Source: Candidatus Latescibacterota bacterium (GTDB taxonomy: Bacteria; Latescibacterota; UBA2968). Taken from it: 64,000 bases of DNA. Below are positions 10,219-47,856 of the stretch, piece after piece. The stretch covers positions 2,624,001-2,688,000 of the forward strand of contig OZ242195.1 of NCBI GenBank assembly GCA_965205975.1, read 5' to 3'. How positions within the stretch are numbered: the first letter of the stretch is position 1; every line of letters begins with the position of its first letter. The position numbers and the translations under genes were made by a program. Under the pieces are notes generated by a model. It was not told the origin of the DNA, made no database searches, and was given only the letters and a program-made list of their open reading frames with translations.

Positions 10219-10359
10219 ACCACCCCCATAACCTCTTGCCAGACACGCAAAACTTTGGCATCATGCAAAAAAGAAAGCGTTGGACTCTGGGCTTTTTTCC
10301 TTCTATGAACCAAGCCAGATCTGACAAACAACCATCCTCAAATCGGAAGGGAGCTTATC

Positions 10360-31948: not shown

Positions 31949-33079
31949 TTAAGTGATTCGACAAACTCTGGAATCACTTGCTCCCATTCCAGTGTGTTGG
32001 GCTTTTAATACAACAACAATTCGCTCTGCGGTGTTGCCATCCCACAACTCGGGTAAGCGGCCAGATTTATAATGTCCGTTCAAAACAGATTCAGCCTCTG
32101 CAACAATGCGTTCAGGACAAACACCCACAAGTGTGTTCGTCCCAATATCTATAGTCTCTGGGCGTTCTGTATTCTCTCTAAGCGTCAAACACGGCACACC
32201 CAAAGACGTCGTCTCTTCTTGCAATCCTCCAGAATCTGTCATCACAAATTTTGCATTCTTCTGAAGTTTCAAAGAATCGAGATAGCCAACGGGATCCATA
32301 AGTTTGACATTATCCATCATCTCAAGCCCTTGCAAAAAACCGAATTGAGATAGGCGATTGCGCGTTCTCGGATGCAAAGGCCACGCGATTGGACATTTGA
32401 GAACTTGCAACGCGGATAAAATGCCAGCCAACGTATCTGGACAATCGACATTTGAGGCGCGATGGAGGGTTAGAAAAACGTACTCTTGAACTGATAAACC
32501 GTGTATATCCAGAATGCTGGATTCATCAGCTTTGGGAGATAGCAACACAAGGGAATCGATCATCACATTGCCCACAAAATGAATGCGGTGATCTTCTATG
32601 CCTTCGCGCCTCAGATTTTCACATGCCTGCTTCGAGGGTGCAAATAACAGATCGCTTATGGCATCCACAACGAGCCGATTGATCTCTTCGGGCATTGAAC
32701 GGTCCCAACTTCGCAACCCTGCCTCTATGTGCCCAACGGGGATTTGCAATTTTGCGGCATCCATCGCACATGCCAAAGTGGAATTTACATCCCCAACCAC
32801 AAGAACCCAATTCGGCCTTTCTTGAAGTAAAACCTCCTCAAATCCCATCATGATCTGCGCTGTCTGGTAAGCGTGACTGCCCGACCCCACATTTAATTCA
32901 TAATGTGGCCTGGGAAGATTTAAGTCTCGAAAAAAAATCTCGGACATAAAATCGTCGTAGTGCTGTCCCGTATGCACCAGAATCGGATCAAACACATCGG
33001 GCGTCTTGACAAGTTGATACCACAGCGGAGCAACTTTCATAAAATTCGGCCGTGCACCTGCAACAAGAATAATTTTCAC
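31949..33079 (-). CDS. wecB: UDP-N-acetylglucosamine 2-epimerase (non-hydrolysing)
   Basis: GARPNFMK, HTGQH, HIEAGLRS, TDSGGLQEE, TERPET. Confidence 0.95.
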   Translation of the reverse strand: MKIILVAGARPNFMKVAPLWYQLVKTPDVFDPILVHTGQHYDDFMSEIFFRDLNLPRPHYELNVGSGSHAYQTAQIMMGFEEVLLQERPNWVLVVGDVNSTLACAMDAAKLQIPVGHIEAGLRSWDRSMPEEINRLVVDAISDLLFAPSKQACENLRREGIEDHRIHFVGNVMIDSLVLLSPKADESSILDIHGLSVQEYVFLTLHRASNVDCPDTLAGILSALQVLKCPIAWPLHPRTRNRLSQFGFLQGLEMMDNVKLMDPVGYLDSLKLQKNAKFVMTDSGGLQEETTSLGVPCLTLRENTERPETIDIGTNTLVGVCPERIVAEAESVLNGHYKSGRLPELWDGNTAERIVVVLKAQHTGMGASDSRVCRIT

Positions 33080-33092
33080 CTGCCTACTCCTT

Positions 33093-33872
33093 CTATTTCG
33101 GAGTTTCCACCTGCCAAATCGGATACCGTATATCTGCCCGCTGCATCTCTCGTTGCAACCATTGATTAAACAGAAGCTTTCGGATCTCCTTTGCTATCCG
33201 CCCGTCCAGCATTGTCGGATAGAGTTCCTGTAATAAATACAGCGCAAAGCCTTTCGATACTTTTTCTGGACCAAAAATTTCACCTATCGAAGCGGCAAAC
33301 ACGCGCGCAGCAATCCCCTTTGGCAACTGCTTCCGCCGAACACGACCCAAAAAGCCACTACCTGATCGCGTGTGTGCATCTTGAGAAAACCGACGCGCCA
33401 TCGCGTGAAAATCTGCACCTTCTTCCCGTATCTGCAAATCAACCTCGTCGATCACATCCTTATCCATGTGAAAAATCCAGCAAATCTCCGCCTCATCAAA
33501 TTCCAGCGTGTGCTGTGCAAAATAGGATTCGACCTGCCCCTCGGCGATCTTCTCAGACAGCAAATACTCCAGTCGCCTCACCTCGGCATCTTCTGCCACA
33601 TCCTGAAGTGTAATACCCCGCTTTGCAAGATAGGCTTCTGTATCTTCTACCCGCTCCAAACGATGTTGATACCGCCAGTCATTCACCTTGCGCTGGATAT
33701 CCTCCGGCGCTGCACAAACACCCTCGCGTCGGGCGAGTTGGCGTATCAATTCTCTACGCGCAAATTCATTAAAAAAATGCAGATTATCAGCAACACCCAA
33801 TTGTCGCACGACATGGTGCAACGACACCTCGACATCATTGACCTGAACCAGTATAGCATCCTCTGACATCAC
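33093..33872 (-). CDS. PpiC-type rotamase / SurA-like chaperone associated with the peptide exporter
   Basis: FHAMARRFSQD...GFLG, VFAAS.GEIFGP, LFNQWL. Confidence 0.8.
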   Translation of the reverse strand: MMSEDAILVQVNDVEVSLHHVVRQLGVADNLHFFNEFARRELIRQLARREGVCAAPEDIQRKVNDWRYQHRLERVEDTEAYLAKRGITLQDVAEDAEVRRLEYLLSEKIAEGQVESYFAQHTLEFDEAEICWIFHMDKDVIDEVDLQIREEGADFHAMARRFSQDAHTRSGSGFLGRVRRKQLPKGIAARVFAASIGEIFGPEKVSKGFALYLLQELYPTMLDGRIAKEIRKLLFNQWLQREMQRADIRYPIWQVETPK

Positions 33873-35254
33873 AACGCCCCCTCTTGCACATCGTATCTCG
33901 CCGACTCGTAAAGCTGTCGCAAAGGAGAAAGCAACATCAGCAAAACCGATTGCCGATCGGTCATAATCTCCGCCGTACCCTTCATGCCGAACATCAAAGG
34001 CTTGTCATATCCCTTCACACGCATCGTATTTTCTTCCAGTTCAACAACGCACTTAAATAGCGGTCCAATACGTTCATCAATCACCGCATCAGGTGAGATG
34101 TATATAAGCCACCCGCGTTTGATGCCAAAATCCTGAAAGGCATAAGCATCGTATTTCAGCTTGACCAACTGCCCGGGCTTGAGCAAACCCACATCTTTAT
34201 TCAACACCATCACCTCTGCAACCATCGGTGCCGAGGTCGGTGCCAGCGCAATTAGAGCCTGCCCCTTGTTGATCACCTGTCCCATCGCATTCACCATCAC
34301 CTGTGTGACAATGCCCGACTCAGGTGCTAAGATCAAATCCGACTCAGCTTCAAGGGTCCGATCAATGCGTTTGCGTGCCTGTTCCAATCGCAACTGTGCA
34401 GTCTCATAAGCGTGTCGCATCTGCGATGCCTCCCGCTCGTGTGCAATACGCGCCTCTGTGATTTGACGCTTGAGATCAGCCACAGCCATTTCATTCTTGT
34501 ATATCTCCGACATGCGCGATGGAAGCGCGGATAGAGCACTCAAATACTGCACACGCGCGCGATTCATAGCCGCCCGGCTGATCAACTCGCGCTCAAACAG
34601 CGTCTTTTGCTGCAAAAACTCCCCTTTCATAAGGTCAATCTCAGCCTGTCGAAATCCAATCTGCGCTTGCAATCCCGCATCAGATGTTTTGCTTTTCGAT
34701 CCGACACCATCCCCCACATCACTGTGATAATCTTCCAATGCATCCTGGTGCGCCTCCATAAACTGCTGCAAAACAGACAGGCGTTGCTCCAATACCCCTA
34801 TCGTCTCTCGATTTAACCTCGCCCTTTGTGGCAACACCGTCTTGAGATCGTACTCTGCCTTTTGAAAAGCCATCTTTGCCTGCTCCCATTCCCGCAACTC
34901 TCCCCAGGTCTCCCACGATTTGAGCTTAAACAATACCTCACCCTTCTCGACATGATCTCCCTCTTTCACGCCAATCAACTCAATCTCACCACCTCGCTGT
35001 GCCTGCATCGTCTTCACCTGTCCGAGGGGCACCAACCGAAAAGGGGCTGATGCCACCACATCCACCTCGCCCCACCACGCCCAGGTAATGGCAACAATCA
35101 CAAATAGCAGGACAATATAGAGCAATGCACGACCCCAAAAGGGCCGCAAGGATCCCATAAACGCATGCACCTCTTCTGCCGCGTCATCTTGTCCCTGAAT
35201 GATACCGGGAGACATTGTTTCTGCTGGTGTCTCCAAAAACCGTTCTGCCATCAT
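33869..35254 (-). CDS. HlyD family membrane fusion protein
   Basis: N-terminal TM, VKEGDHVEKGE, coiled coil, NKDVG, KYDAY, ISPDA. Confidence 0.92.
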   Translation of the reverse strand: MMAERFLETPAETMSPGIIQGQDDAAEEVHAFMGSLRPFWGRALLYIVLLFVIVAITWAWWGEVDVVASAPFRLVPLGQVKTMQAQRGGEIELIGVKEGDHVEKGEVLFKLKSWETWGELREWEQAKMAFQKAEYDLKTVLPQRARLNRETIGVLEQRLSVLQQFMEAHQDALEDYHSDVGDGVGSKSKTSDAGLQAQIGFRQAEIDLMKGEFLQQKTLFERELISRAAMNRARVQYLSALSALPSRMSEIYKNEMAVADLKRQITEARIAHEREASQMRHAYETAQLRLEQARKRIDRTLEAESDLILAPESGIVTQVMVNAMGQVINKGQALIALAPTSAPMVAEVMVLNKDVGLLKPGQLVKLKYDAYAFQDFGIKRGWLIYISPDAVIDERIGPLFKCVVELEENTMRVKGYDKPLMFGMKGTAEIMTDRQSVLLMLLSPLRQLYESARYDVQEGAL

Positions 35255-38200
35255 ACCACCTGCAACTGTTGACTACACATGTGATAGTACAAACCCTCTT
35301 GCACCATCAACTCATCGTGTGTGCCCATCTCCACAATATGACCCTTGTCCAGCACCACAATCGCATCCGCATCGCGCACCGTACTCAACCGATGGGCGAT
35401 AATCAATGCCGTGCGATCATCTAAAAACAGATCTAAATTCGCCTGAATCACCTGTTCCGAATCCGTATCTAAGGCATTGGTCGCCTCATCAAAAATCAAA
35501 ATTTTCGGATCGCAATACAGCGCCCGTGCAATCGCAATCCGCTGCCGTTGTCCACCAGACAGCCCCACACCCTGCTCACCCACCTTTGTCTCATAGCCCA
35601 AAGGCATATCGCTCACGAAATCGTGGACACACGATAGCTTTGCCACTTCCAAAATGCGGTCCATGTCCGCATCTGACTGACCAATAGCGATATTTTCTGC
35701 AATCGTGCCAGAGAACAAAAACGGCTCCTGCATCACCATACCCACCTGTCGCCGCAACCAATGAGGGTCCAGATCCCGCACATCCATACCATCTAAGGTC
35801 ACGCGCCCTTCTGACGGATCAAATAAACGAGGTACCAGCTTGACCAACGTGGTTTTACCCGCGCCACTACGTCCCACAACCGCAACTTTTTGACCCGGCT
35901 CAAGAATCAGATCAATGTTATTCAACACATACGGTTCATCAGAACCGACACCATATCTAAAAAATACCCCCTCAAAAACCACGCGCCCTTCCAAATGCTT
36001 TAAGATCAAACCCTGACCCTGTTGCCGCGCATCCTCCATCTGCGTGTCATACACATCATTCAGCCGATCCAGAGCAATACGCGCTTCTTGCACCTGCGGC
36101 CATATCCCAATCAAGCCCATAATCGGTCCCATCACATTGCCAATCAGCGCATTAAACGCCATCAACTGTCCAACCGACAGATTACCTGCAATCACCAGGG
36201 AAGCACCATACCACAAAATCACCGTACTGCTCAACAAATTGATCACGCTTCCGATCCCCCCAAACAGCATCTGCATTTTTAACCGTTGAAAGCCAATCTG
36301 CATTTCCTTTGTGAACTTACCTTCCCAATGCCACCGTGTCGCGCGCTCAACCGCCTCGGCTTTGACCACATCAATGCCGTGTAGCGAATCAATCAAAACC
36401 GATGATTGTTCGGCACGCGCCAGAAAAGCGCGCTGGCTGAAAGCCTTCAAAATGGGTGTGTAAATCAGCGTGAGACCTATAGAAAGCGGCACAAATATCA
36501 GCATCACCAGCGTCAGTTCGGCATTGTAATAAAACATCAGACCCAGATAGACAAAGAGCATGATAAAATCCAGAACCGCAGAAACCGTCGCACCCGTCAA
36601 CAAACGCTGAATCGTTGCATTCTCCCGAAACCGCGTGGTCAAATCTCCCGTGCGCCTGAGAGCAAAAAACCGCATGGACAGCGCCAATAAATGCCGATAA
36701 AAACGCGACAACATCGCAATGCTCAACCGCGCACTTACATATCCGATTAAATAGACGCGCAACGTTGATGTGCCCATCTGGAACAACGCAACCACGACCA
36801 TCCCTACCAGCATCAAATTCAACAAATCCTCGTCGTGATGCACTAAGACCTGATCGATAATCGTCTGCATAAAAATAGGCGATGCCAGACCGAACAAACT
36901 GAGCACTAAAGACGCTAATAGTACCTCAATCAAAATGCCCCTATAAGGCCGGATCAATGGAAAAAACCGCTTAAAAGAAGACTGGGACGGTTCGTTCTCT
37001 GCCACCTGATCCGTGTATTCCAACAACAGCGCCATGTTCGTCCACCCCTTCTCAAACTCTGCCCGCGACAGCTTGCGAATGCCCACACCTGGATCTGCTA
37101 TCTTCACCTCCCTTTTATTTATCTGATACAAGACCACAAAATGATTGCCTTCCCAGTGAAGAATGGCTGGCAATTCTGTCCGCATCAGAGCTTCATACCC
37201 CGTGCGCACACCGCGCGTGACAAAACCTATGGTTTCCGCAGCCTCGGCCAAAGCCGCCATCGACGTGCCAGAACGCGACACATTGGACATATCGCGCAGC
37301 CTGTTCAACCCAATAGGCATCTTGTAATACTTACAGATCATGCCCAAACACGCCGCGCCACAATCCGATTGATCGTGTTGCTTCAAGAATGGGAAGCGAA
37401 ACCAAGTGGATGGTTTTGCACCGTCTATTCTGATATTAACCACATTGGATGCTGTATTGGATACCGTGTCTTCTTGGATAACAGATTGCTCAACCGGTGT
37501 GGCCTCTTGATACCCCGATGGGGACAGGGCTTGCCGATCATCCCGTGCCTGTCTAAACCCTGCTCCATTCGTTCGCTGTTCTCCGCGCGATATGCGGCCT
37601 GCCTCCAACGCAGCCTCAAATCCCGGTATCATAGCTTTTAACTTATTAAAATCGCTTTTATCTATGTAAAAAAGCACACTATCACGCCGAGTGCGAATGA
37701 TCGTTTCGTCATCTCTACCATCGCCAAAATAATCCCCCGGGCGTAGAATCACCGTATTCCCATTTTCCAACACCGCCTCCAACTGACCGCTGCCAATCAA
37801 ATAAAATCGCTGTCCGAATTGCCCTTGATCAACAACGGTCACACCCTCCTCAACCGCCTCGCGCTTTAGCCGCGCGAACAACACCCGCATCGCCTCGCCC
37901 GGAACATCCCCTTTCAAAAACCGCGTAAAATCCCGATACGCAATACAGGCAACCTGCTCTTCAAGATATGCCCTTACATCAGAACTTTTTCTCACAGCCT
38001 TAAAAAATTCATCCTTCGGCACCTGCAACATCTCCGCATCCTCAACCGCTCGCACCGTTGCCCGATGCCCCTGCCTGCTCAACAGTGCCCCTTCGCCAAA
38101 ATGATCACCCGCATACAAATAGCCCACGGTCATCGAATTGCCATTCCCATCCTGCTTCATCACCCGCAACCGTCCAGACTGCACAATGTAAAACGCCTCA

Positions 38201-38295
38201 CCTTCTTGCCCCTGTTGAAAAACAACACCTCCAAAGGGAAAGTGAACAGATTGTGACCGCACCGAGTTTTTAATGAAAAAATGCGAAAGATTCAT
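35251..38295 (-). CDS. Peptidase-containing ABC exporter (PCAT): two cNMP-binding domains, C39 peptidase, TMD, NBD
   Basis: GDHFGE and GDYFGD cNMP folds; QHDQSDCGAAC, ILHW..NHFVV, IADP C39 triad; GRSGAGKT, LSGGQRQR; ATG 38295 has a GGAG RBS. Confidence 0.92.
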   Translation of the reverse strand: MNLSHFFIKNSVRSQSVHFPFGGVVFQQGQEGEAFYIVQSGRLRVMKQDGNGNSMTVGYLYAGDHFGEGALLSRQGHRATVRAVEDAEMLQVPKDEFFKAVRKSSDVRAYLEEQVACIAYRDFTRFLKGDVPGEAMRVLFARLKREAVEEGVTVVDQGQFGQRFYLIGSGQLEAVLENGNTVILRPGDYFGDGRDDETIIRTRRDSVLFYIDKSDFNKLKAMIPGFEAALEAGRISRGEQRTNGAGFRQARDDRQALSPSGYQEATPVEQSVIQEDTVSNTASNVVNIRIDGAKPSTWFRFPFLKQHDQSDCGAACLGMICKYYKMPIGLNRLRDMSNVSRSGTSMAALAEAAETIGFVTRGVRTGYEALMRTELPAILHWEGNHFVVLYQINKREVKIADPGVGIRKLSRAEFEKGWTNMALLLEYTDQVAENEPSQSSFKRFFPLIRPYRGILIEVLLASLVLSLFGLASPIFMQTIIDQVLVHHDEDLLNLMLVGMVVVALFQMGTSTLRVYLIGYVSARLSIAMLSRFYRHLLALSMRFFALRRTGDLTTRFRENATIQRLLTGATVSAVLDFIMLFVYLGLMFYYNAELTLVMLIFVPLSIGLTLIYTPILKAFSQRAFLARAEQSSVLIDSLHGIDVVKAEAVERATRWHWEGKFTKEMQIGFQRLKMQMLFGGIGSVINLLSSTVILWYGASLVIAGNLSVGQLMAFNALIGNVMGPIMGLIGIWPQVQEARIALDRLNDVYDTQMEDARQQGQGLILKHLEGRVVFEGVFFRYGVGSDEPYVLNNIDLILEPGQKVAVVGRSGAGKTTLVKLVPRLFDPSEGRVTLDGMDVRDLDPHWLRRQVGMVMQEPFLFSGTIAENIAIGQSDADMDRILEVAKLSCVHDFVSDMPLGYETKVGEQGVGLSGGQRQRIAIARALYCDPKILIFDEATNALDTDSEQVIQANLDLFLDDRTALIIAHRLSTVRDADAIVVLDKGHIVEMGTHDELMVQEGLYYHMCSQQLQVV

Positions 38296-38336
38296 TTTTC
38301 TAATTACTCCATTATGTGGATGAGCGCATATCCATC

Positions 38337-39200
38337 TCAATTATCGCATACCGGAGTTTCCTCAAGCTCAACCTCCGCCTCACGGTGATCTGTTTCTTCG
38401 CGCTTTGCCAACTGATAAAACCACCACAACCCAAGAACAGCCAATATTGGTCCGCACACATTCAACCACCACGGATTGTGAACCACAACATTAAAATCTT
38501 CTGAAACTGGAAAACCCGGTACATCGAAATGCAGAAATGTTGTAGCCAGAAAATTGTTCAGAGCGTGTCCCCAAATTGCAGGCCATAAAGACCCCGCTTG
38601 GATGACCCAATAGGCAAAGACAAGCCCTAATACAAAAGCCCCTGGAAATTGCCACGGATTCAAATGTATTAGACCAAATAAAATTGCCGACCACATAATC
38701 GCCCGATTTTGAGTACCATGTGCCAATAAACCTTTCAAGATAATGCCTCTAAAAACGACCTCTTCAATAAAAGGTGCTATCACAACTGCGCCCAATAAGG
38801 CTGACAGATAAGATGTTTTTTTGCCGAAAGATTGATGAAAGATGTCCTGAAATATATCTGGCATTGGCAAAACAGATATAACCGCATTGTACAATTCAGA
38901 AAGAACAACCCCCAGTCCAAAGATAGATAATCCAACGGAAAGCCACATGCGCCAGTCATAGTCTATATTTCTAATCGCAAGAGGCAACATATCTTTCCAG
39001 GTTCGACCCGTTCGATGCGAAATATAGCACAAAATCAGAATAAATTTTACCAACGACAAAAGCCAGAAAGAGTAATCATACTCAAACAAAGGTTTGTCAA
39101 TAATGGCACCTATAATGTCAATCAATATGGTCAAACCAAATGCGATGAGGATATATAATACCAGCAGCCAAACAGACTGTTTCAGATTTGGATACGTCAT
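38337..39200 (-). CDS. CPBP (Abi/CAAX) family intramembrane metalloprotease
   Basis: EEVVFRG, FGLIH, HALNN motifs intact. Confidence 0.9.
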   Translation of the reverse strand: MTYPNLKQSVWLLVLYILIAFGLTILIDIIGAIIDKPLFEYDYSFWLLSLVKFILILCYISHRTGRTWKDMLPLAIRNIDYDWRMWLSVGLSIFGLGVVLSELYNAVISVLPMPDIFQDIFHQSFGKKTSYLSALLGAVVIAPFIEEVVFRGIILKGLLAHGTQNRAIMWSAILFGLIHLNPWQFPGAFVLGLVFAYWVIQAGSLWPAIWGHALNNFLATTFLHFDVPGFPVSEDFNVVVHNPWWLNVCGPILAVLGLWWFYQLAKREETDHREAEVELEETPVCDN

Positions 39201-39300
39201 CTCTTTCCTTCTTGATAACTGATGTTACGCAGTGGTGAGTTGATTTTTTGTTCAAAGTATGGACAAAAAATCTAATAAGCTGTTTTAAAATTATTGAGAG

Positions 39301-39661
39301 TTAAAAAGTTTCGCGCTTCGCCACCTGAAAAAACCACCACAACCCAATCACAGCCAATAGTACCGCACACACATCTACCCACCACGGCAAAAAGATCAAA
39401 GCTTCTGAAATTTTCCCAAAGCCCGGTATTCCTGATCGTGCCAAGGTAACGGCCAAAAAACTGTTCAGTGCGTTTCCCAAAAGACAAGGCAACAAAGACC
39501 CCGTTTGAATAAACCACCATGCGAATACAAGTCCAAATGTGAAGGCCAGGGGAAATTGCCACGGATTCAGATAAGATAAAAAAAATAAAATTGTCGACAA
39601 AATAGCGGCCTGAGACTTTGAGCAACAGACCAATAAACCACCTAAAATAATGCCTCGGATC
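39301..39661 (-). pseudogene. Decayed CPBP paralogue fragment abutting the IS3 element
   Basis: IRGIILGG...YLNPWQFP...GNALNS aligns with the intact neighbour but lacks both conserved His residues and the EE motif. Confidence 0.75.
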
Positions 39662-39701
39662 TGTAACCCAAAATTTGAACCAGTTAGTAGGCTAATTTAC
39701 G

Positions 39702-40610
39702 CTAAGGGTCAGTCGTGATATTTCTCATAAGAATGGCCTGCACCACTTCTTGTGGCGTCTGGTAGCCCAAGGCAGAATGCCTTCGATCTTGATTGTAATA
39801 CGTCATTTGTTGCCCAATCACACAAATCAGTTCTGTCAAAGCGTCTGCGTGCATAATCAACGTTTTGTTTTCGGTCTTAAAACGTCCCCAAAAGGACTCT
39901 ATCCACGGATTATCTTTTGCCCCATTCATCGCAAAAGAAATCCCTGCACCTTCTCTTATCAATACACGGTGTAACCAGTCGTATGAGGTGTAAACCGAAT
40001 CGCGGTCGTGATGAATGAGGATGTCAGACAGTCTCCTGTCCAAACAGCTCAGGTTGTTTTGCAACTGGTCCAGACAGTATATCGCCAGGGCACGGTTGCG
40101 ATGTGCGCCTACGCCAAAGCCTGCGATCCACCTTGTCTGGATGTCCAAAAAGGCCATTAACCACGCTTTTTTCTGTCCTTGGCAATAGAACAATTCTGTA
40201 AAGTCGGTGCAAAAGACACGCAAGGGATCAATGGTGCGGTTCTGGACTAAATTAGCGTCTTGTCCGACTTGGCTTATCAGCTTCAATACCGGATTCTTGC
40301 CGCGTTTTGGCAGATGACGAGGTAAGTCTAACTCATAAGTTGACAATAGCTTACGCAACCGCTTATGATTGATCACGATGCCAGTACGGGCTTTTATATC
40401 TTCCTTGATGCGACGATACCCATAATCAGGATGATGCCTGATCGTCGTGATGATCTCATCCTTTATCTGGGCATCTTCACCCGAACAAGAGGCCCGACCG
40501 CGACGATAGGCAAGCGTCCCTTTCGACAAGCATAGGGCACGGCAGCACATATTTAGACCATACCTGTCTTTATGCCTCTCGACCAGTTCTACTTTGTCTG
40601 ACACGCTCAA
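39702..40610 (-). CDS. IS3 transposase OrfB (DDE)
   Basis: YGYRRI, CTDFTE, HHDRDSVY, DNPWIESF, RRHSALGYQTP. Confidence 0.92.
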   Translation of the reverse strand: MSVSDKVELVERHKDRYGLNMCCRALCLSKGTLAYRRGRASCSGEDAQIKDEIITTIRHHPDYGYRRIKEDIKARTGIVINHKRLRKLLSTYELDLPRHLPKRGKNPVLKLISQVGQDANLVQNRTIDPLRVFCTDFTELFYCQGQKKAWLMAFLDIQTRWIAGFGVGAHRNRALAIYCLDQLQNNLSCLDRRLSDILIHHDRDSVYTSYDWLHRVLIREGAGISFAMNGAKDNPWIESFWGRFKTENKTLIMHADALTELICVIGQQMTYYNQDRRHSALGYQTPQEVVQAILMRNITTDP

Positions 40611-40891
40611 CGGTTGCCTAAAAAATTTTTGAGCAGAGCCAGTTCGACTTCTTTCTGACCTAACAGGCGCTCCAGATCAGACACACGCGCTTCATACGTC
40701 TTGACCGTATCGTTGCCAGAGAAAATCTCTGCACCACTGTCTATAAACTGACGCTTCCAATTTGATAGACTCACCGGGTGCACATCGTAAGCGCGAGCGA
40801 TTTCTGCATCCTCTTTGTCTGAGGTCAGTGCTTCTAACACGATCTGGAACTTGAGTTTAGCCGAGTAGGACTTCTTGGTTTTCTTACCCAT
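40607..40891 (-). CDS. IS3 transposase OrfA (HTH)
   Basis: YSAKLKFQIV HTH; T TTT TTA slippery site near the 3' end. Confidence 0.9.
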   Translation of the reverse strand: MGKKTKKSYSAKLKFQIVLEALTSDKEDAEIARAYDVHPVSLSNWKRQFIDSGAEIFSGNDTVKTYEARVSDLERLLGQKEVELALLKNFLGNR

Positions 40892-41138
40892 GGTATCTCC
40901 TCCTGTTGGTGAGAAAATACCACGATGATACTCAATGTCAATTAGCCTTTATACCGGGTCAACTTTTGGGGCGCACCTCAAAACGTTACAATCAGGCATT
41001 TTTAGATTATCTATGATGGTGTTCTTCTGAGGATACAGCGATAGCTTCTGGTAGTATATAGGGAACCTGGTTTTGATGGATGATCTTGAATCCATTTGTC
41101 ATTTTTCACTGAAACTATAAAAATACTCACCTGTTCCT

Positions 41139-41696
41139 CTACTCCTCTTTTTTTTGAAATATTTGAGCTATACCAAAAGCTGTAGGATGTCCTATAACGA
41201 TACATTCTCTATTAAATTTTCTTAGTTTTATAAGATCTGAGATATCTTTAGCACTAATTGCGAGCGCAAAACTCAATATATTGGCGGACCAATAAGATAA
41301 AGAAAGGCAAAAAAGTACTATACAAATACTGCCAGTAGTGATGAGAGGGGTAATTAATGCTTTTCTTTGACAACCTACTGAAACAGGGACCTTACATGCA
41401 CAAAATAGCACTAACCAGTATATATAAAATCCGAAATAGATATTATCTCGATCAATTTTTCCCAATTTGTGGTAAGCGACAAAATGAGAGAGTTCATGTA
41501 TAACTAAGATAATAAGAGCTGCAAGAATCATTGTTAAATAATCATCTTCCCATTGGACCTGAATCTTTTGTTCCTCCAAAAAGGAAAGTATCGACAAAAG
41601 AAAAATTAGCATGCTTGAATAAATGAGAACAGATGTGCCCCAAAGAACAATCAGGTTTGTTTTTATTTCGCCAACTTTATGTAGTACTTTTTTCAT
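41139..41696 (-). CDS. DUF3267-like membrane zincin peptidase
   Basis: TM segments, HELSH (HExxH), ALITP, SAKD; very AT-rich; start probably ATG 41696. Confidence 0.65.
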   Translation of the reverse strand: MKKVLHKVGEIKTNLIVLWGTSVLIYSSMLIFLLSILSFLEEQKIQVQWEDDYLTMILAALIILVIHELSHFVAYHKLGKIDRDNIYFGFYIYWLVLFCACKVPVSVGCQRKALITPLITTGSICIVLFCLSLSYWSANILSFALAISAKDISDLIKLRKFNRECIVIGHPTAFGIAQIFQKKEE

Positions 41697-41884
41697 ATAT
41701 AACTCAAGTTGTGTGGTATAGCGTAGCCATACTATAGGCCAAGACAAAGAAGCCCTTGCTGGTAACTTCAGGTTGTGGACACAGCGTTTTCGGGTGTGAA
41801 TCTGCTGTCTCCAATTTACATTGGAGCCTCTACTATTTCAACTAAGATAGGGACAATACCCAGAATAAGATGAAAGTAGAGAGA

Positions 41885-41920
41885 GTCGATGTCAAACCAC
41901 ATATGTAATTTGACATCGAC
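41885..41920 (-). terminator. Stem-loop downstream of the precursor genes
   Basis: Perfect 12-bp stem GTCGATGTCAAA / TTTGACATCGAC. Confidence 0.65.
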
Positions 41921-41935
41921 AAACAGTACTACAGA

Positions 41936-42307
41936 TTAATCAATAAGATCACTAACAAAATCTACGGCCGCATCCACACCTGCTTTAATCTCTTCCTTCC
42001 AGGTACCAGCAGCTACAGCTACAGCTGCAATTGCAGTTATAATAGGTGCTGCCCCTCCTCCTCCTGGCCCTGCGTTGTTTATTGTTGTGGTTGTGCTGTT
42101 GATAGTAACCATAACAGGTGGAGGCAGGAATTCAGATAGGAGCTCAACCAAAGGATTTGGTCCCAGGGGGACAACCATACGACCACCACCTACAACGTCT
42201 TGCATTTTCGGCAAATCCAACAACTTGTGTTTTACCTGCAATTTCGTACAGGTAACAAATCCTTCATCCGGATTCGTGATAATTCGATCAGTCTGTGTTT
42301 GAGTCAT
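41936..42307 (-). CDS. Putative RiPP precursor 3 (41-aa double-Gly leader, 82-aa core)
   Basis: GGAGG RBS; L(-12), M(-7), V(-4), GG; leader aligns with precursors 1 and 2. Confidence 0.75.
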   Translation of the reverse strand: MTQTQTDRIITNPDEGFVTCTKLQVKHKLLDLPKMQDVVGGGRMVVPLGPNPLVELLSEFLPPPVMVTINSTTTTINNAGPGGGGAAPIITAIAAVAVAAGTWKEEIKAGVDAAVDFVSDLID

Positions 42308-42414
42308 GATATCCTCCCAAAATAAATGAAGCAGAATTTATAACAAACTTTTCCACCTAAACTGGCCAACATATTCACTTTGCCAAATACTTATCGGGTT
42401 CTGAACTGTATTGG

Positions 42415-42633
42415 TCAGGGAAAAGGGTTAAAGATATCTTCCAAAATATCGTCCAAAATATCGTCCAGCGTCGGGTCAAAATCCTCACTGGTATCATCAC
42501 CTGGGACCGGGAAACATCCATCGGTACCAGAGATCCGAGCAATTTCAAGCCTATTCAAATCACTCGTTTTAATCGGCAGATTGGTCACACCTGTGACCGA
42601 TTGCTCAGGAATTGATATAATTCGTCTCGCCAT
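42415..42633 (-). CDS. Putative RiPP precursor 2 (37-aa leader ending GT, 35-aa acidic core)
   Basis: AAGGAGGTG RBS; L(-12), E(-8), I(-7), I(-4), G-T. Confidence 0.75.
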   Translation of the reverse strand: MARRIISIPEQSVTGVTNLPIKTSDLNRLEIARISGTDGCFPVPGDDTSEDFDPTLDDILDDILEDIFNPFP

Positions 42634-42660
42634 TCTTCCTCACCTCCTTTCTTTACTGCC

Positions 42661-42720
42661 TCAGCGCAAATCGCTGAAATGTCGAATTTTGCGAAACGTT
42701 CTGTGGATCGTGGCACGATT
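42661..42720 (-). pseudogene. Duplicated 3' end of the upstream glycosyltransferase
   Basis: Encodes NRATIHRTFRKIRHFSDLR* versus GT end TRATAHKTLRKIRHFSDML; 42670-42706 matches 43019-43055 at 33/37 nt. Confidence 0.85.
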
Positions 42721-42721
42721 C

Positions 42722-42946
42722 CTACCAAGAATCCCACCATTCACTCACTGTATCTTCGACATAATCCACCGCATCTTCGATATAATCAATAATATCTTCA
42801 AAGAGCTCAAGTGGATCTTCTCCTGGCAAAATGCATCCTCCTGCTGCATTCGCCATCTCACCATGTGCCAGTTCTATTTCTTGACCGGGGAGTTGAACAC
42901 AGGTCACAGAAACTTGTGCTGGCATTGATGTAATGCGCTTCGTCAT
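42722..42946 (-). CDS. Putative RiPP precursor 1 (37-aa double-Gly leader, 37-aa acidic core)
   Basis: AAGGAGGTG RBS; ELAHGEMANAAGG fits the double-glycine consensus. Confidence 0.8.
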   Translation of the reverse strand: MTKRITSMPAQVSVTCVQLPGQEIELAHGEMANAAGGCILPGEDPLELFEDIIDYIEDAVDYVEDTVSEWWDSW

Positions 42947-43000
42947 TTTCTCGCACCTCCTTTCTTTTCCACCTCAACATAAGCCATATCCCTTCGCCAA

Positions 43001-44404
43001 TCAGGGAGCCGTGAGCATATCGCTGAAGTGTCGGATTTTGCGAAGCGTTTTGTGGGCTGTCGCGCGCGTTTCACATAAACCCAACAGGACGGCTTCGACT
43101 TCGTTTGGGTGTAAATGTTGCATCAAGTGAAGGCCCAGGCCTTCAATAAGGGACATATCTTGTCCCAAAAACGAAATGCGCGGCAATGGGCCTTGCACGC
43201 TTCCCAAATAGTTAAATCCCTTAGACACACTTTGCGGCACACCAGATACATCACAACCCTGTGTAAAACTCACGGTTATTGGTATCGGGCAGGCGGGTGC
43301 ATCGCGTTTGATCCGCAAATTTTCAAACAGTGCCATGTGCTGCTGCGCCGTGTGATCCCAGGAAAATTCGAGCGCGCGTTTGCGAGCACCCTCTCCCAAT
43401 TTCTCCCGCTCCGTTTTGCTATTCAACAAATCGCGTACAACATCTGAAATCACCTCAGGAGCGATATAACCCGTCACATTCAATGGCTCATCTTCAAACC
43501 GCTCAATCTCTATCAACCGCCCACAACTACCCAACAACTCTGGCGCACCCGCAAAATTTGTCGCCACAACCGGAAGACCACACGCCATGCCCTCTATCAC
43601 AGTTGAAGGACACGACTCATACGAATACACCGACAACGCGCACAACACATCCAGCATATTGTAATACAGCGGCATATCCGTATAGGGTTGCGCGCCCAAA
43701 AATATCACATTGGGCGAATGTGTCACAGGTGCGAACTGCTTGCCAATCACCGCAAACAACACATTGGGATTCAGATCGGCCATTCGCAAAAACGGATACG
43801 CACCCTTGCCCGGCTCAAACCGCCCACAAAAACCCACCACAGGCATCTCCAAAAAGCGTTGATCACCCGTCTTATCCGCGACCTCTTTGCGCGCTTGCAA
43901 CTTATCCATCGGCACAAACACCTCGGCATCTACCCCATTGGTAATAGGGCGCAAATACGATCGGTCAAACACCAGCTTGCCCACTTCCTCAGCGACATAC
44001 GCCGACTTGGGGGACAAAGCATCATAAGGCCGCAACAGCGAATAACATTGAAGCACCTTATCCATAAAATCGCGATTGCGTCCAAAAGAACACGACAGCC
44101 GAATCACAATGGGCGCGGGACACACATGGCGGAAAAATGCCAGGTCATCTACCCTGGGTTCAAACATCAGCACACCATCAAAATCCTGCCGCACAAACCA
44201 CTGGCGCGACGTATCAATCGTCTCAAATGCGGGTTGAATACCGTGCATATTCGGACCATAATCCACCGCTTCAGACGCTGGCATATACACCTCGCAATAC
44301 TTCGATAACGCCTGCACATGGTTAAAACCCGAAAGGGACGCCCCGCTATTCGACGCCATCACTTTCTCGCAGTCGTGATACGGGTGTGACACATAAATTT
44401 TCAT
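43001..44404 (-). CDS. GT4-family glycosyltransferase with ~100-aa C-terminal extension
   Basis: ITNGVD, GRFEPGKG, ESCPSTVIEGMACGLPVV (EX7E), FSWD. Confidence 0.85.
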   Translation of the reverse strand: MKIYVSHPYHDCEKVMASNSGASLSGFNHVQALSKYCEVYMPASEAVDYGPNMHGIQPAFETIDTSRQWFVRQDFDGVLMFEPRVDDLAFFRHVCPAPIVIRLSCSFGRNRDFMDKVLQCYSLLRPYDALSPKSAYVAEEVGKLVFDRSYLRPITNGVDAEVFVPMDKLQARKEVADKTGDQRFLEMPVVGFCGRFEPGKGAYPFLRMADLNPNVLFAVIGKQFAPVTHSPNVIFLGAQPYTDMPLYYNMLDVLCALSVYSYESCPSTVIEGMACGLPVVATNFAGAPELLGSCGRLIEIERFEDEPLNVTGYIAPEVISDVVRDLLNSKTEREKLGEGARKRALEFSWDHTAQQHMALFENLRIKRDAPACPIPITVSFTQGCDVSGVPQSVSKGFNYLGSVQGPLPRISFLGQDMSLIEGLGLHLMQHLHPNEVEAVLLGLCETRATAHKTLRKIRHFSDMLTAP

Positions 44405-44416
44405 CTTTCACCTCAT

Positions 44417-46969
44417 TTAGACTGATTCTATAAACTTTCGCGTTTGCTCGGCACCATCCATGGACAGATGGTGTTCGGACACAGAACTTTCGAGCATTTC
44501 GGCAATAGCTTTTGCCATCTTTCCCGTACCTATTTGATCGGGGTGTATCACCCCTGCAATACCCAACGCCATCAACTGCTGCGCGCGAAATTCCTGATCA
44601 TCCATTGCAATACTCGGCACCAGAATCGACGGGGCCTGTGTCTCGAGCACATTCATACACGTATTGTAGCCCGCCCGGCTAATCGATAAATCCGCGTGTT
44701 TCATCCACGCCAAAAAATTGGACGTAAAGCGCTCAAGGCGAAACGGACCATCACCGCATAACGCGCGCAAAGCCTCAAAATGCGTTTCATCGATAAACGC
44801 ACCGGCAAAAATCACCATCTCGCGTCCATCGTGCGCAACGTCCTGCTCCAATTGTTTCCACGCTTCAATACAAGGTGCAATAAGCGCAAGCCCCTCAGCC
44901 CCGCCACCAGCACTGACCAACACATACCGATCAGGCGCAGGATCAGGTCGAGATACGTCCTCGAGTTTCTCAGAGATAAACCCCGTATAAACCACGGGAA
45001 TATCGATATCACCAGTCCAGGGAAAGTGATCTTCCAGCCGGGACAATTTGGAATCGCCATGCACCAATACCGCATCGAAATACTGATTCAACACGGGCAC
45101 GACCTCCTCGTAATACTGCCGATTAAAAGCCAAATACTCGTGATGTATCCCGCCAAAAGGCACCGAATAAAACCGCATCGCATCTCCATCGCGTCTCTGG
45201 GTAAGCGGAAAAGTCAGTTGCAACGCATCGCTTTTTGCCCGCGTTGGAATATCGCGCAGTGAACACAGCACCTTCGCGTCGGGATTGACCTCATTGAGCC
45301 TGACAATGGTATTGAGGATCTCGTTCTTGAGCGACCATCGGGAAAAGGGAAAAAACTCAACACAAAACACATCGGGACGAATCTGCTCCATCACGTCGGC
45401 AAGCTGTGTCTGGCGCTCGCGCATAACAGCCTGCAAATCGCGCTCCTTATCAACAGACTCAATACCCTGCGCACCCGTGCGAAGCGGCGGCAGAGGAATA
45501 CGTACCACTCCTTCATCGAGATCAGCTTCGGGAATTGGTCGCCCGCCATCGATAAAAAACACATCGCATGTCTTCACCAGTTCATTGACAATCTGTCGAT
45601 TGCGAAAATGGTGCCCAACGCCAATGAGGTGCTGGCTGTAAAATGCAACGCGTGTGCGGGTTTTTGCTTGTTGATTAATACATTCCATACGGGCAGGACA
45701 AACGGCTATCGCGGCCTCATAGATCCCGCGATAGCGTTCCACAACCTGCCTCCATGTGTGCTCTGACCGCACCCATTCGTTGCCCCCTTGCCCCAATTGC
45801 ATCCGCAGCGAGGGATTCTCGATGAGTTCGGCACACGTCTGGGTGAGACTTTCGACATCATCTGCCACAAAAACGCGCCCGGTTTCGCCGTCTGTAACCA
45901 CCTCCTTGAGTGCGGCTACATCGCTAACGACAACGGCTTTTTCCATCGCCATTGCCTCATAAGGCTTCATCGGCGTGACCAGTTCGGTAACGCGGCTACG
46001 CGTACGCGGAATAACAAAAACATCTAACATCGCGTAATATGCAGCTATTTGGTCGTGCGGTATTTCACCCGTAAAAATCGCCACATCCGCCAGACCGCGT
46101 TCCTGTGCTTCGCGCTGCAATGCTGGCAGGTCTCGTCCACCCCCCACAATCAACACTTTGAGATTGGCATACTGCCCGCGAAGAACCTCACACGCCTGCA
46201 ACAACAACCGCAATCCCTCCAGTGACCGCACCAGACCGATATAGCCCACCACCACATCTTCCGGTTCAATCCCCAGATCATTGGCAAGTTCGCCTGACCG
46301 ATTTTTGGGTGCATATTGCTCAACCGCCACACCATTGGGCACTACGCCAATTTTCTCTTCGTCAACCCCCTCGCGTATGCATTCTGCTTTCAACACCTCG
46401 GACAGCGTCACCACAGCATCGGCTCGTTGCATCGCATTGACATGTTGCGCGTGTTGCTGGCGATACACCTCTGAATCGGGAGCCAGCATACCCTGCGCCA
46501 CACCGCTATCGTGCCACAAACCCCGCACCTCGTACACCACAGACAGACCACAGTGATGTCCTATATCAATCGCAACCTGTGCATTTCTACCCGGTGACGC
46601 CGCGTGCAACACATCGGGTTTTTCTGTCTCAACAGCCCGCGCAACGCGTTTGCGAAAGTGTTGCTCCTGCCCCACACGATAGATTCGTGGGGTATCTGGC
46701 AATTGAAATTTGCCCAGACGTTCGGACAGACGTGCTGTGTATGCTTCAGAAGTATTTCTCAAATAAGGCACATCATTGATATATTCAATATCATCAGCGA
46801 GTTGCTCAGACACACCCCAGCGCGTGAGCACCACAGGATCAAAGCCGAGCGCTTTCTGCGTATTGATGATATACTGGCTTCGCAAACTGTAGCCGCTTTG
46901 TCGGTGTGGCAGCGAAACATCCAGAATATGTAATATCTTCATCGGCATAGGATTTTCAAATTGTCTCAT
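44417..46969 (-). CDS. Two-domain glycosyltransferase: N-terminal GT4, C-terminal COG4671/GT28_C-like GT-B
   Basis: VPNGV, ELVTPMKPYEAMA in the first half; FYSQHLIGVGH, VSAGGG, ISRAGYNT, DQEFRA in the second half; start may be 46942. Confidence 0.85.
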   Translation of the reverse strand: MRQFENPMPMKILHILDVSLPHRQSGYSLRSQYIINTQKALGFDPVVLTRWGVSEQLADDIEYINDVPYLRNTSEAYTARLSERLGKFQLPDTPRIYRVGQEQHFRKRVARAVETEKPDVLHAASPGRNAQVAIDIGHHCGLSVVYEVRGLWHDSGVAQGMLAPDSEVYRQQHAQHVNAMQRADAVVTLSEVLKAECIREGVDEEKIGVVPNGVAVEQYAPKNRSGELANDLGIEPEDVVVGYIGLVRSLEGLRLLLQACEVLRGQYANLKVLIVGGGRDLPALQREAQERGLADVAIFTGEIPHDQIAAYYAMLDVFVIPRTRSRVTELVTPMKPYEAMAMEKAVVVSDVAALKEVVTDGETGRVFVADDVESLTQTCAELIENPSLRMQLGQGGNEWVRSEHTWRQVVERYRGIYEAAIAVCPARMECINQQAKTRTRVAFYSQHLIGVGHHFRNRQIVNELVKTCDVFFIDGGRPIPEADLDEGVVRIPLPPLRTGAQGIESVDKERDLQAVMRERQTQLADVMEQIRPDVFCVEFFPFSRWSLKNEILNTIVRLNEVNPDAKVLCSLRDIPTRAKSDALQLTFPLTQRRDGDAMRFYSVPFGGIHHEYLAFNRQYYEEVVPVLNQYFDAVLVHGDSKLSRLEDHFPWTGDIDIPVVYTGFISEKLEDVSRPDPAPDRYVLVSAGGGAEGLALIAPCIEAWKQLEQDVAHDGREMVIFAGAFIDETHFEALRALCGDGPFRLERFTSNFLAWMKHADLSISRAGYNTCMNVLETQAPSILVPSIAMDDQEFRAQQLMALGIAGVIHPDQIGTGKMAKAIAEMLESSVSEHHLSMDGAEQTRKFIESV

Positions 46970-46999
46970 GTCTTTCCAGTACTTTTAAGACCTATTCTT

Positions 47000-47410
47000 T
47001 TATGAATTTTTTTGAATAAGGCTTTCGCATCTCACTTTTGCGCGGTAAGCGGTAAGAGACATGTCATTTACCTTCTTAAACACCTCACAAAAATACTTTG
47101 AGGACCGATACCCACACGCACTTGCAACCTCATAGGTCAGCAAGGATTGTTCACCTATCAAGTGCTGTGCATGAGCAATTCTGATCTCTCTCAACTTTTC
47201 TCGGAAAGGCTTGCCAACATGCTTTTTGAACAAGGCACTCAGATGCGTTCTGGAAAGTTTGAAATGATCTACGAGATCACTAAATTTGAGGTCCGGGTTG
47301 CTGTAATGCGCCTCCAAAAAGGCTTCAAACGCGATTTTCCAACTCGAATCTGATGGGATATGGGTTTTGACCTTCGCCAAAAACTTGCTCCTTTCAACTA
47401 CACTATTCAA
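47000..47410 (-). CDS. AraC-family regulator (DNA-binding domain only)
   Basis: HLSALFKKHVG, RIAHAQHL, VASACGY.SSKYFCEVFKK; TTG start. Confidence 0.85.
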   Translation of the reverse strand: MNSVVERSKFLAKVKTHIPSDSSWKIAFEAFLEAHYSNPDLKFSDLVDHFKLSRTHLSALFKKHVGKPFREKLREIRIAHAQHLIGEQSLLTYEVASACGYRSSKYFCEVFKKVNDMSLTAYRAKVRCESLIQKNS

Positions 47411-47439
47411 ACAGATATTTCACAGCTTAAACAAATATG

Positions 47440-47455
47440 TGCAATATGTGTGCCA
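47440..47455 (-). promoter_or_regulatory. Sigma54 (-24/-12) promoter of the RiPP-like operon
   Basis: TGGCAC-ACATA-TTGCA matches the TGGCAC-N5-TTGCW consensus, ~30 bp upstream of the AraC start. Confidence 0.8.
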
Positions 47456-47549
47456 ATGTGAATTTCTCAAGTAATAATGATCATAAAGTATTGTTTTTAT
47501 TTCGTATAAAAATTATTATCGAGCAAAAGACAGGTTGAATACCGAATTA

Positions 47550-47574
47550 AAAAGTGAAAACACCATTCACTTTT
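47550..47574. promoter_or_regulatory. 9-7-9 palindrome, candidate activator binding site
   Basis: AAAAGTGAA-N7-TTCACTTTT about 100 bp upstream of the sigma54 box. Confidence 0.45.
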
Positions 47575-47612
47575 CTCTTTTCGATTGAACATTATTTGCA
47601 CTTTAATTCGCG

Positions 47613-47722
47613 TTGACAATCGCGTTCCGGATTGTTATTTTTTACATCCTTCTCAAGTTCTCAGCTTGAGATATTTACCTGCCGCTGACAGTTGACTTGC
47701 CCGGTCTTGTCGGCGGCTTTTT
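47613..47722 (+). ncRNA. Candidate small RNA or attenuated leader (promoter, two hairpins, U-tract)
   Basis: TTGACA-17-TATTTT; hairpin 47651-47671; terminator stem 47681-47717 followed by TTTTT. Confidence 0.45.
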
Positions 47723-47856
47723 CATACAACAATAATGATAATACCAACTCTTCTGTCGCTGCAACAAAAAAAGATTCCACTTATGTCTTATCTGACCTCT
47801 TTATGTCTTATTTTTGGTATTTTTTTTCGAAATGTTGTTTTTTATTTAACTCCTGA

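Follow-up and report, generated by a model that had tools for sequence, protein, structure and literature searches.

Double-glycine leaders, as found on substrates of peptidase-containing ATP-binding cassette (ABC) transporters (PCATs), follow a consensus in which positions -4, -7 and -12 are hydrophobic and position -8 is acidic. We analysed a 64,000-nucleotide stretch of a Candidatus Latescibacterota genome (assembly GCA_965205975.1, contig OZ242195.1, positions 2,624,001 to 2,688,000; hereafter the window), in which a first-pass annotation made from the letters alone had placed three precursor peptides of this kind at 41936-42946. The three open reading frames (ORFs), here called P1, P2 and P3, are all present there on the minus strand, as are the other cassette genes in the window (Table 1). 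As in class II bacteriocin and LahT/PCAT1-type systems, the window leaders combine Gly-Gly at -2/-1 with hydrophobic residues at -4/-7/-12 and Glu at -8, and the nearby exporter carries the Q/C/H/D motifs of a C39 peptidase, with a HlyD adaptor alongside. Unlike in those systems, the leaders (36-43 residues across the family) have an extra, better-conserved N-terminal motif, and the exporter has two cyclic nucleotide monophosphate (cNMP)-binding stretches and a constant cytoplasmic parvulin partner. In our best explanation overall, which we consider reasonably probable, P1-P3 would be precursors with a bipartite leader that are exported by the PCAT and to whose cassette a glycosyltransferase module has been added.

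Glycosylated peptides of the double-glycine type are known as glycocins, whose transferases are SunS-type GT2 enzymes (GT-A fold) and whose cores are disulfide-stapled helix-loop-helix structures with nested disulfides. Sublancin, glycocin F, pallidocin and enterocin F4-9 are reported to carry O- or S-linked sugars (PMC12457901, PMC6405829, PMC8620827). Similar to a glycocin cluster, the window holds a double-glycine-leader ribosomal peptide, a glycosyltransferase and a PCAT together. In contrast, its enzymes are GT4 and GT28-like proteins (GT-B fold), the cores of P1, P2 and P3 hold 1, 1 and 0 Cys, and glycosylation here is predicted only. Because the transferases are GT-B and the cores have no paired Cys, this is not a glycocin system by the features that define one. 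Fusions of a glycosyltransferase with a recognition element (RRE) for ribosomally synthesized, post-translationally modified peptides (RiPPs) appear among the RRE-Finder predictions as uncharacterised candidates of the PF00535 (GT2) family (PMC7470986, PMC12710340). Like them, the window transferase that we call GT467 has an extra small domain and lies beside short ORFs; unlike them, it is a PF00534 (GT4) protein, and none of the tests run identifies its extra domain as PqqD/RRE.

The exporter and the parvulin have described counterparts as well. HetC of Nostoc PCC 7120 is a PCAT whose N-terminal cNMP-type domain is essential and binds ppGpp, and no membrane-fusion gene is reported near hetC (PMC10986499). 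The window exporter likewise places a cNMP-type domain N-terminally of its C39 peptidase within a single polypeptide but, unlike HetC, has two such stretches, an adjoining HlyD gene and identifiable substrates next door. MirC (TIGR04500, SurA-like) is reported as a required maturation partner in the rosaritide graspetide cluster, which also encodes a PCAT (PMC13097080). As there, the window cassette combines genes for a precursor peptide and a PCAT with one for a cytoplasmic SurA/PpiC-like protein. However, the window parvulin scores below the TIGR04500 cut-off (76.5 bits against 180) and keeps the PF00639 signature, and the cassette has no ATP-grasp enzyme; as its match covers only positions 87-336 of the 340 in the profile, the parvulin is without MirC's N-domain. 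Finally, in the EbfG/PteB system of Synechococcus elongatus, likened here by description only, several small double-glycine paralogues are exported by a PCAT and serve biofilm formation, a non-antibiotic role, and its abstract reports no glycosyltransferase or parvulin (PMC4997328).

Judged by their alignments, P1, P2 and P3 are paralogues: BLASTP pairs P1 with P2 at E 1e-07 (19/53 identical), P1 with P3 at E 2e-04 (18/56) and P2 with P3 at E 0.014 (9/33). A MAFFT alignment leaves R4, I5, P9, L19, L26, G36 and G37 invariant in the three leaders. The expected Leu at -12 and hydrophobic residues at -7 and -4 can be read from each translation. P1 has L26 at -12, E30 at -8, M31 at -7 and A34 at -4, followed by G36-G37. 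In P2, where T37 is -1, L26, E30, I31 and I34 precede a non-canonical G36-T37 ending that had been noticed at first pass, and in P3, where G41 is -1, L30, M35 and V38 precede G40-G41, with K34 rather than an acidic residue at -8. A G-A ending is among the common variants of the double-glycine motif. The P2 orthologues at loci L018 and L012 (86-88% identity) have G-A at the leader end, and the G-T of the window copy is thus a one-residue departure from that variant. Each gene also has the strong ribosome-binding site (RBS) attributed to it, GGAGGTG 7 nt 5' of the ATG for P1 and P2 and GGGAGGA 4 nt 5' of the ATG for P3. On sequence grounds, P1-P3 have the testable features of double-glycine/PCAT substrates. 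The window copy of P2 stops at ...NPFP, three residues before its L018 and L012 orthologues (...NPFPWPM).

To place these leaders in a family, a profile of 16 diverse members was searched against 1.84 billion proteins, much as the first-pass annotation had proposed. It returned 80 cluster representatives at E <= 1e-3, of which 78 are 54-191 aa long (the two long ones look spurious), and the loci inspected mostly hold a PCAT. P1 by itself has 66 matches including itself, 65 of them full-length homologues at 52-84% identity, none with a Pfam domain or an informative name. For P3 there are 5 matches including itself, and its 3 full-length homologues (62-74% identity) have an almost identical leader with indels in the core. 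P1, P2 and P3 match no Pfam or NCBIfam model, Gly-zipper models of Pfam included in the case of P3. Across the 16 diverse members, R4, L19 and G36 never vary and C16 and P20 hardly do. The extra N-terminal motif that had been pointed out as RIxxxP...VT(C/G)...L is real: in the form R-I-x-x-x-P...V-T-C-x-x-L-P it is the most conserved part of the family, and the N-terminal half as a whole follows R-[IVM]-[TI]-[ST]-x-P ... [FV]-x-x-C-x-x-L-P.

The family is confined to few lineages. Within a set of genomes from the phylum it was found in 39/168 genomes and 6/49 genera, and all named relatives in the reference-genome collection (8/8 related loci) are Candidatus Latescibacterota or uncultured Latescibacteria metagenome-assembled genomes. 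DNA sequencing runs holding at least a quarter of the sampled words of the window include sponge metagenomes. The window genome (5.56 Mb, one contig) contains 8 family ORFs at E <= 3.3e-4 by profile search, the next match having E 0.23. These eight form three cassettes: the one in the window, one at ~C1:251.8-259 kb (L017) and one at ~C1:2.799-2.812 Mb (L018). Across the paralogous cassettes GT467 is 91-93% and the PCAT 90-93% identical, while the long peptides differ from cassette to cassette: a Cys-rich tail marks those of L017, and L018 has a Gly-zipper instead. In the literature searched, with supplements outside the search, we found no prior description of the leader family or the cassette. 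As far as the collections compared here reach, P1-P3 belong to a lineage-restricted, previously undescribed peptide family.

The cores are far less uniform. That of P1, CILPGEDP...DTVSEWWDSW, is acidic (13 D+E, no K+R), as is that of P2 (12 D+E, no K+R). In the P3 core, a Pro-rich stretch and a run of Thr are found together with a hydrophobic segment rich in Gly/Ala and, at the C-terminus, an acidic helix (VDAAVDFVSDLID). Cores elsewhere in the family include acidic helices, Gly-zippers, hydrophobic segments rich in Gly/Ala, tails rich in Cys, and long S/T/G/P-rich stretches; the long peptide of L018 matches DUF6861 (E 8.4e-07) and, weakly, Gly-zipper models (E about 0.03). The contrast of conserved leader and divergent core noted at first pass holds at family level, where mean pairwise identity among the 16 diverse members is 0.375 in the leader vs 0.19 in alignable core columns. 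It holds less well for the window genes, whose cores are partly alike: the likeness of P1 and P2 extends 13-16 residues beyond the Gly-Gly (C-x-x-P-G-[ED]-D), and an acidic amphipathic stretch ends all three peptides. Cores of the P1 type are themselves 52-84% identical over 65 homologues. The pattern is therefore clearer across the family than among P1-P3.

The first-pass annotation had tied these leaders to PCATs, and the tie stands: a PCAT homologue is present in 24 of the 26 peptide-bearing loci of 14-20 kb, the exceptions being L058, which has an N-terminal fragment only, and L012, which has none. The window exporter scores above the cut-off of TIGR01193 (530 bits). Its C39 domain (PF03412, E 3.2e-40) has the Q/C/H/D residues in the motifs QHDQSDCGAAC, NHFVVL and IADP, and its two cNMP stretches (PF00027, E 2e-32) lie N-terminal to PF03412, PF00664 and PF00005. 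Peptides are followed by PCAT, HlyD and parvulin genes in every complete cassette, diverged ones included (PCAT ~64-74% identity), and the parvulin gene stands after that of HlyD in every complete cassette seen. The parvulin, whose matches in the PDB are PrsA and SurA, has no N-terminal hydrophobic segment or signal peptide. From this arrangement we infer, with good support, that the adjacent PCAT cleaves P1-P3 with its C39 domain and exports them.

The mechanism that we favour would then run as follows. The C-terminal half of the leader (L-12, E-8, hydrophobic -7/-4, G-G) would serve as a double-glycine signal for export, at which the C39 domain of the neighbouring exporter would cut, and the peptide would leave through the exporter and its HlyD adaptor. 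The N-terminal half would be a second docking site. Its reader is most likely one of the constant components; the parvulin, in the role of chaperone or partner protein, and the exporter's N-terminal region are candidates. In the genus of the window genome, a glycosyltransferase module consisting of a GT28-like protein, GT467 and, here, a fused GT4 would have been added directly upstream of the peptides. This module probably glycosylates the cores in the cytoplasm before export, with the serine of a D-x-V-S-E motif as a candidate site. Two membrane proteases, one of the CPBP and one of the DUF3267 type, may provide self-protection or trimming. To count as a RiPP, a peptide must have its core modified under guidance of the leader, and GT467, the GT28-like enzyme and the parvulin are the candidate enzymes for this. 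A bolder version, which we put forward only tentatively, would make this a new RiPP class in which the parvulin holds the bipartite leader, a GT4 enzyme with a novel peptide-binding domain of its own and the GT28-like enzyme build an O-glycan on the conserved D-x-V-S-E serine of otherwise hypervariable cores, a nucleotide-gated PCAT cleaves and exports the product, and sister cassettes that have no transferases reflect gain or loss of the module.

The case for the transferase module starts from its association with the peptides. GT467 was found in 24/168 genomes of the phylum, and 24/24 of these also carry peptides. A family peptide lies at most 700 nt 3' of GT467 in 19/19 loci, even where GT467 is only 52-69% identical and the cores are wholly different, and the GT28-like part adjoins GT467 in the same 19/19. 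That part stands alone (~417 aa) in L009-L017, whereas in the window it is fused to a GT4 half resembling TIGR04063 of exopolysaccharide systems (333 bits, below cut-off); in L050-L052 a separate GT4-like gene lies between the GT28-like gene and GT467. The GT467 family itself comprises ~40 cluster representatives of 466-468 aa, down to 46% identity. Below it come a single 566-aa relative (P0112, 31% identity), whose N-terminus is extended by ~100 residues that match PqqD weakly (E 0.17), and then generic GT4 enzymes. A metagenome scan with the GT467 alignment kept 80 loci, of which one is a family member (L065, 83% identity, at a contig end); the others are generic GT4 genes at 22-34% identity.

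The AlphaFold2 model of GT467 (predicted local distance difference test, pLDDT, 89.8) has a GT-B fold, with MshA, GlgM and BshA as best Foldseek matches. It also contains a conserved C-terminal extra domain (residues ~370-467), in which residues ~377-465 have the order strand-strand-strand-helix-helix-helix. Modelled in isolation, the domain has poor strands (pLDDT 65.7), and fold searches give generic helical matches (Z <= 7.2). The strand and helix order recalls an RRE, yet no sequence or fold search supports that assignment: no PqqD/RRE match was found in Pfam (E <= 1), in PDB sequences (phmmer and profile) or in the ESM Atlas, nor for the isolated-domain model by Foldseek or VIA-align. As none of these tests gave a match, we do not call the domain an RRE.

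Several observations weigh against the favoured reading, and the first concerns cassettes without transferases. Peptides occur without GT467 in 15 genomes, including 13/15 of one genus (g10), in which GT467 is found in 0/15 genomes (E <= 1e-40). We fetched seven loci from GT467-lacking genomes, six from g10 and one from g8. The six g10 loci have peptides, then DUF3267 and CPBP genes, then a PCAT, and no match to GT467 or the GT28-like transferase at E <= 1e-4. In L059, L060, L061, L063 and L064 a full PCAT is followed by HlyD and then parvulin; L058, besides its PCAT fragment, has no HlyD or parvulin match. The N-terminal motif is nevertheless complete in the g10 leaders, as in MTDRILSMP...VTCxQLPGRE...REM...SGG. 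It thus cannot exist only for docking a transferase, the leader has no need of the transferases, and the peptides can evidently function unglycosylated. Since the exporter, HlyD and parvulin are always present, they are more likely readers of the N-terminal motif than the transferase. The earlier proposal of an enzyme-recognition site is therefore left with a genuine motif and a weakened case for transferase docking. The g8 locus (L062, genome G042) retains the last 90 residues of a GT467 homologue (10206-10475, minus strand; 62% identity) between an IS3-like transposase gene and a family peptide; this could be either what is left of a decayed transferase or the extra domain in free-standing form.

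GT467 itself and the candidate site provide points both for and against glycosylation. For the extra domain, neither Pfam nor the PDB nor fold comparison gives a match to any known peptide-binding domain. A complex prediction for leader and transferase, as suggested at first pass, gave a median score of 0.50 for GT467 with leader residues 1-45 against 0.00 for the best of 3 controls (contact agreement at least 36%, partner pLDDT at least 39). The mark applied is reached by 116/157 solved complexes and 2/215 mismatched pairs, but scores of at most 0.60 account for only 18 of the 157 solved complexes and for both passing mismatches, and we count the predicted complex as a weak pass only. As for the site, a serine within an acidic amphipathic module is common to many otherwise unrelated cores (DTVSEWW in P1, DFVSD in P3, DRVSEG elsewhere). 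The motif D.[VAGLI]S[EDQ], defined after viewing the data, occurs in 33/76 representative cores, where 1000 shuffles give 1.3 on average and at most 7, with core boundaries set by a heuristic. It is present in 38/60 distinct cores within 6 kb of GT467 vs 0/15 in loci without the transferase, a contrast that is not independent because the latter are essentially one clade. When N is allowed at the first position, 3/15 of those cores match, and P2 is without the motif altogether. The D-x-V-S-E serine thus stays a candidate glycosylation site, and its recurrence does not itself count as evidence for glycosylation.

The remaining points concern translation, expression and export. In the closest orthologue pairs, amino-acid-changing outnumber synonymous codon differences (13 vs 3 for P1; 9 vs 5 and 10 vs 4 for P2), so this codon comparison gives no signature of purifying selection; the excess fits diversifying selection, which by itself is not proof of coding. 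RNA-library contigs from 4 runs of 3 studies, 85-99% alike, cover P1 (run X17), P2 (run X19) and GT467 (all 4 runs), a hint of expression at most, as the sequences are those of relatives and DNA carry-over is possible. Contigs at least 85% alike reach only the first 35 bases of P3, which says nothing about its expression. Lastly, the cassette has no outer-membrane channel gene.

Among the alternatives, the one that survives best is compatible with the export mechanism: the products may not be antimicrobials but peptides that serve a sponge symbiont in its extracellular matrix, in adhesion or in signalling, a possibility that we take seriously while giving it less than even weight. Cores as strongly acidic as those of P1 and P2 are unusual among membrane-active bacteriocins, long mucin-like stretches rich in S/T/G/P make up many cores of the family, and sponge metagenomes are among the holders of this DNA. 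An antimicrobial role is suggested instead by the CPBP-type and DUF3267 membrane proteases adjoining the peptides, an arrangement like that of bacteriocin immunity loci, by the hydrophobic Gly/Ala-rich or Gly-zipper segments of P3-type cores, and by multi-copy cassettes, variable cores and the excess of amino-acid changes, which fit an arms race. Precedents for other roles exist in the small double-glycine-motif proteins that enable biofilm development in Synechococcus (PMC4997328) and in HetC, which drives cell differentiation (PMC10986499).

A second alternative holds that P1-P3 are unmodified substrates like class II bacteriocins, and that the transferases merely travel with the cassette and act on an envelope glycan or glycolipid. 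The g10 cassettes, with peptides, exporter, adaptor and parvulin and neither transferase gene, speak for it, as do the exopolysaccharide-type GT4 half of the 850-aa protein, the structural matches of GT467 (MshA, BshA, GlgM and PimA), which are small-molecule or glycan transferases, and the want of an identified peptide-binding fold in GT467. We nevertheless regard it as rather unlikely. GT467 is restricted to peptide-bearing genomes and lies immediately before the peptides in every one of the 19 loci across 52-100% identity, it carries a family-specific extra domain, and the cassette contains no flippase, polymerase or polysaccharide export gene. The weak pass of the GT467-leader prediction and the S/T/G-rich composition of many GT467-adjacent cores point the same way. 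Even if the peptides are unmodified, the family would be an undescribed, rapidly diversifying secreted-peptide arsenal of sponge symbionts.

The mechanism implied at first pass, in which the N-terminal R-I-x-x-x-P...V-T-C...L-P motif exists to dock the glycosyltransferase, fares worse, and we consider it improbable. Conservation of the motif goes further than the known needs of a C39 domain (leader positions up to about -15 reportedly matter for C39 in PCAT1 and LahT), the complex with GT467 passed weakly, and the strand and helix order of the extra domain would suit such a role; against this, the 13/15 g10 genomes that keep the motif in full without GT467 need another reader. That the ORFs are chance open frames or decayed, untranslated remnants is hardly credible: the closest pairs show no purifying selection and translation is only inferred, but frames are open in all 66 P1-type matches, with in-frame length changes, and in 79 distinct family members across the fetched loci, the Shine-Dalgarno sites are strong (GGAGG at most 12 nt from the start in 22/24 upstream stretches listed), and the leader motif persists where other cassette genes are only 50-70% identical.

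Should the favoured reading, a bipartite leader with PCAT export and an added transferase module, prove true, leader-guided peptide glycosylation would here rest on GT-B enzymes, in contrast to the GT-A enzymes of known glycocins, in a candidate phylum that has no cultured members and is common in sponges. Material for testing is at hand in the ~80 sequence clusters with one leader and very different cores, in genomes with up to three cassettes and in sister genera without the transferases. The system also raises the questions of how a long bipartite leader is read, whether a parvulin can act as a chaperone for PCAT peptides and what a cNMP-type domain does on an exporter.

Table 1. Peptide genes, upstream elements and neighbouring cassette genes in the window, in window coordinates.
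Feature	Coordinates	Strand	Basis and remarks
P1	42722-42946	minus	74-aa precursor, 37-aa double-glycine leader; ORF and homologues
P2	42415-42633	minus	72-aa precursor, leader end G-T, acidic core DGCFPVPGDD...NPFP
P3	41936-42307	minus	123-aa precursor, 41-aa leader
Conserved ~110-nt element ahead of P1	42947-43060	minus	Overlaps GT467 3' end; alignment and consensus fold
Shortened element copy ahead of P2	42634-42745	minus	~35-nt internal deletion, inverted repeat kept
GT467, GT4-type (GT-B), directly upstream of P1	43001-44404	minus	467 aa; Pfam PF00534
850-aa fusion, GT4 (1-421) and GT28-C/MurG-like (434-850)	44417-46969	minus	PF04101 (GT28 C-terminal); GT4 domains of the window transferases PF00534/PF13692
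AraC-family helix-turn-helix regulator, head of cassette	47000-47410	minus	Pfam HTH_18
DUF3267 membrane HExxH protein, putative zincin	41139-41747	minus	Pfam PF11667
IS3-family transposase, two ORFs	39272-40610	minus	Pfam rve/HTH_21
CPBP/Rce1-like intramembrane protease	38337-39200	minus	Pfam PF02517
PCAT: two cNMP-binding stretches, C39 peptidase, ABC membrane domain, ATPase	35251-38340	minus	Pfam
HlyD-family periplasmic adaptor	33869-35254	minus	Pfam; TIGR01843 217.5 bits, above cut-off
Cytoplasmic PrsA/SurA-like parvulin (PpiC-type)	33093-33872	minus	Pfam Rotamase (PF00639) E 1.1e-11
UDP-GlcNAc 2-epimerase	31949-33079	minus	Pfam PF02350 E 1.6e-107

The other genes of the cassette recur to different degrees. 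In L051 and L053-L055, homologues of the AraC-type regulator (47-52% identity) are placed as in the window. Other genera, too, have DUF3267-like genes in their cassettes, and the window protein, which also has a weak NCBIfam YydH/LiaK match (E 0.0098), is a candidate processing or immunity factor. The CPBP gene, found also in L012, L018 and the g10 cassettes, encodes a candidate immunity or processing protein. Between these two genes sits the IS3 insertion, which splits the window cassette and is absent from the paralogous L018. The UDP-GlcNAc 2-epimerase gene lies 3' of the parvulin gene in L018 too and has no match in L009-L017; its product is a possible sugar supplier and not a constant cassette member. 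In related genomes, housekeeping genes border the cassette, namely those for a flavoprotein, GMP synthase and D-Ala-D-Ala ligase.

One more transferase was considered and rejected as a member of the system. A TMEM260-like GT-C protein (731 aa, a protein O-mannosyltransferase homologue) is encoded ~1.5 kb from the peptides in L058, L059, L061 and L063, i.e., in 4/7 loci from GT467-lacking genomes. Its orthologue in the window genome (69% identity, C1:2347530-2349704) lies ~276 kb from the window and beside no cassette, and we treat the adjacency as local synteny.

Upstream of the peptide genes, the ~110-nt element precedes P1- and P2-type genes in L009-L018, even where it does not overlap the GT467 end. 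It contains an inverted repeat, TCAGCG...CGCTGA, and an upstream CGCUUC could pair with GAGGUG of the RBS. Covariation is weak (covariation term -0.74 kcal/mol; double changes in 3/22 pairs), and no Rfam family was found at E <= 0.1 in 40500-47800. Consensus scans gave 17 promoter-like sites vs 10.9 +/- 2.8 in shuffles and 7 terminator-like sites vs 6.8 +/- 3.6, none of them informatively placed.

Two smaller observations concern the peptide genes themselves. Antisense to P1 and P2 runs a 182-aa ORF (42380-42928, plus strand), most likely a by-product of their open frames. One contig in each of the RNA-library runs X18 and X20 links the beginning of a P3-type gene with the GT467 end (42330/42971) across 109 other letters, and thus represents a relative's cassette without the P1 and P2 genes.

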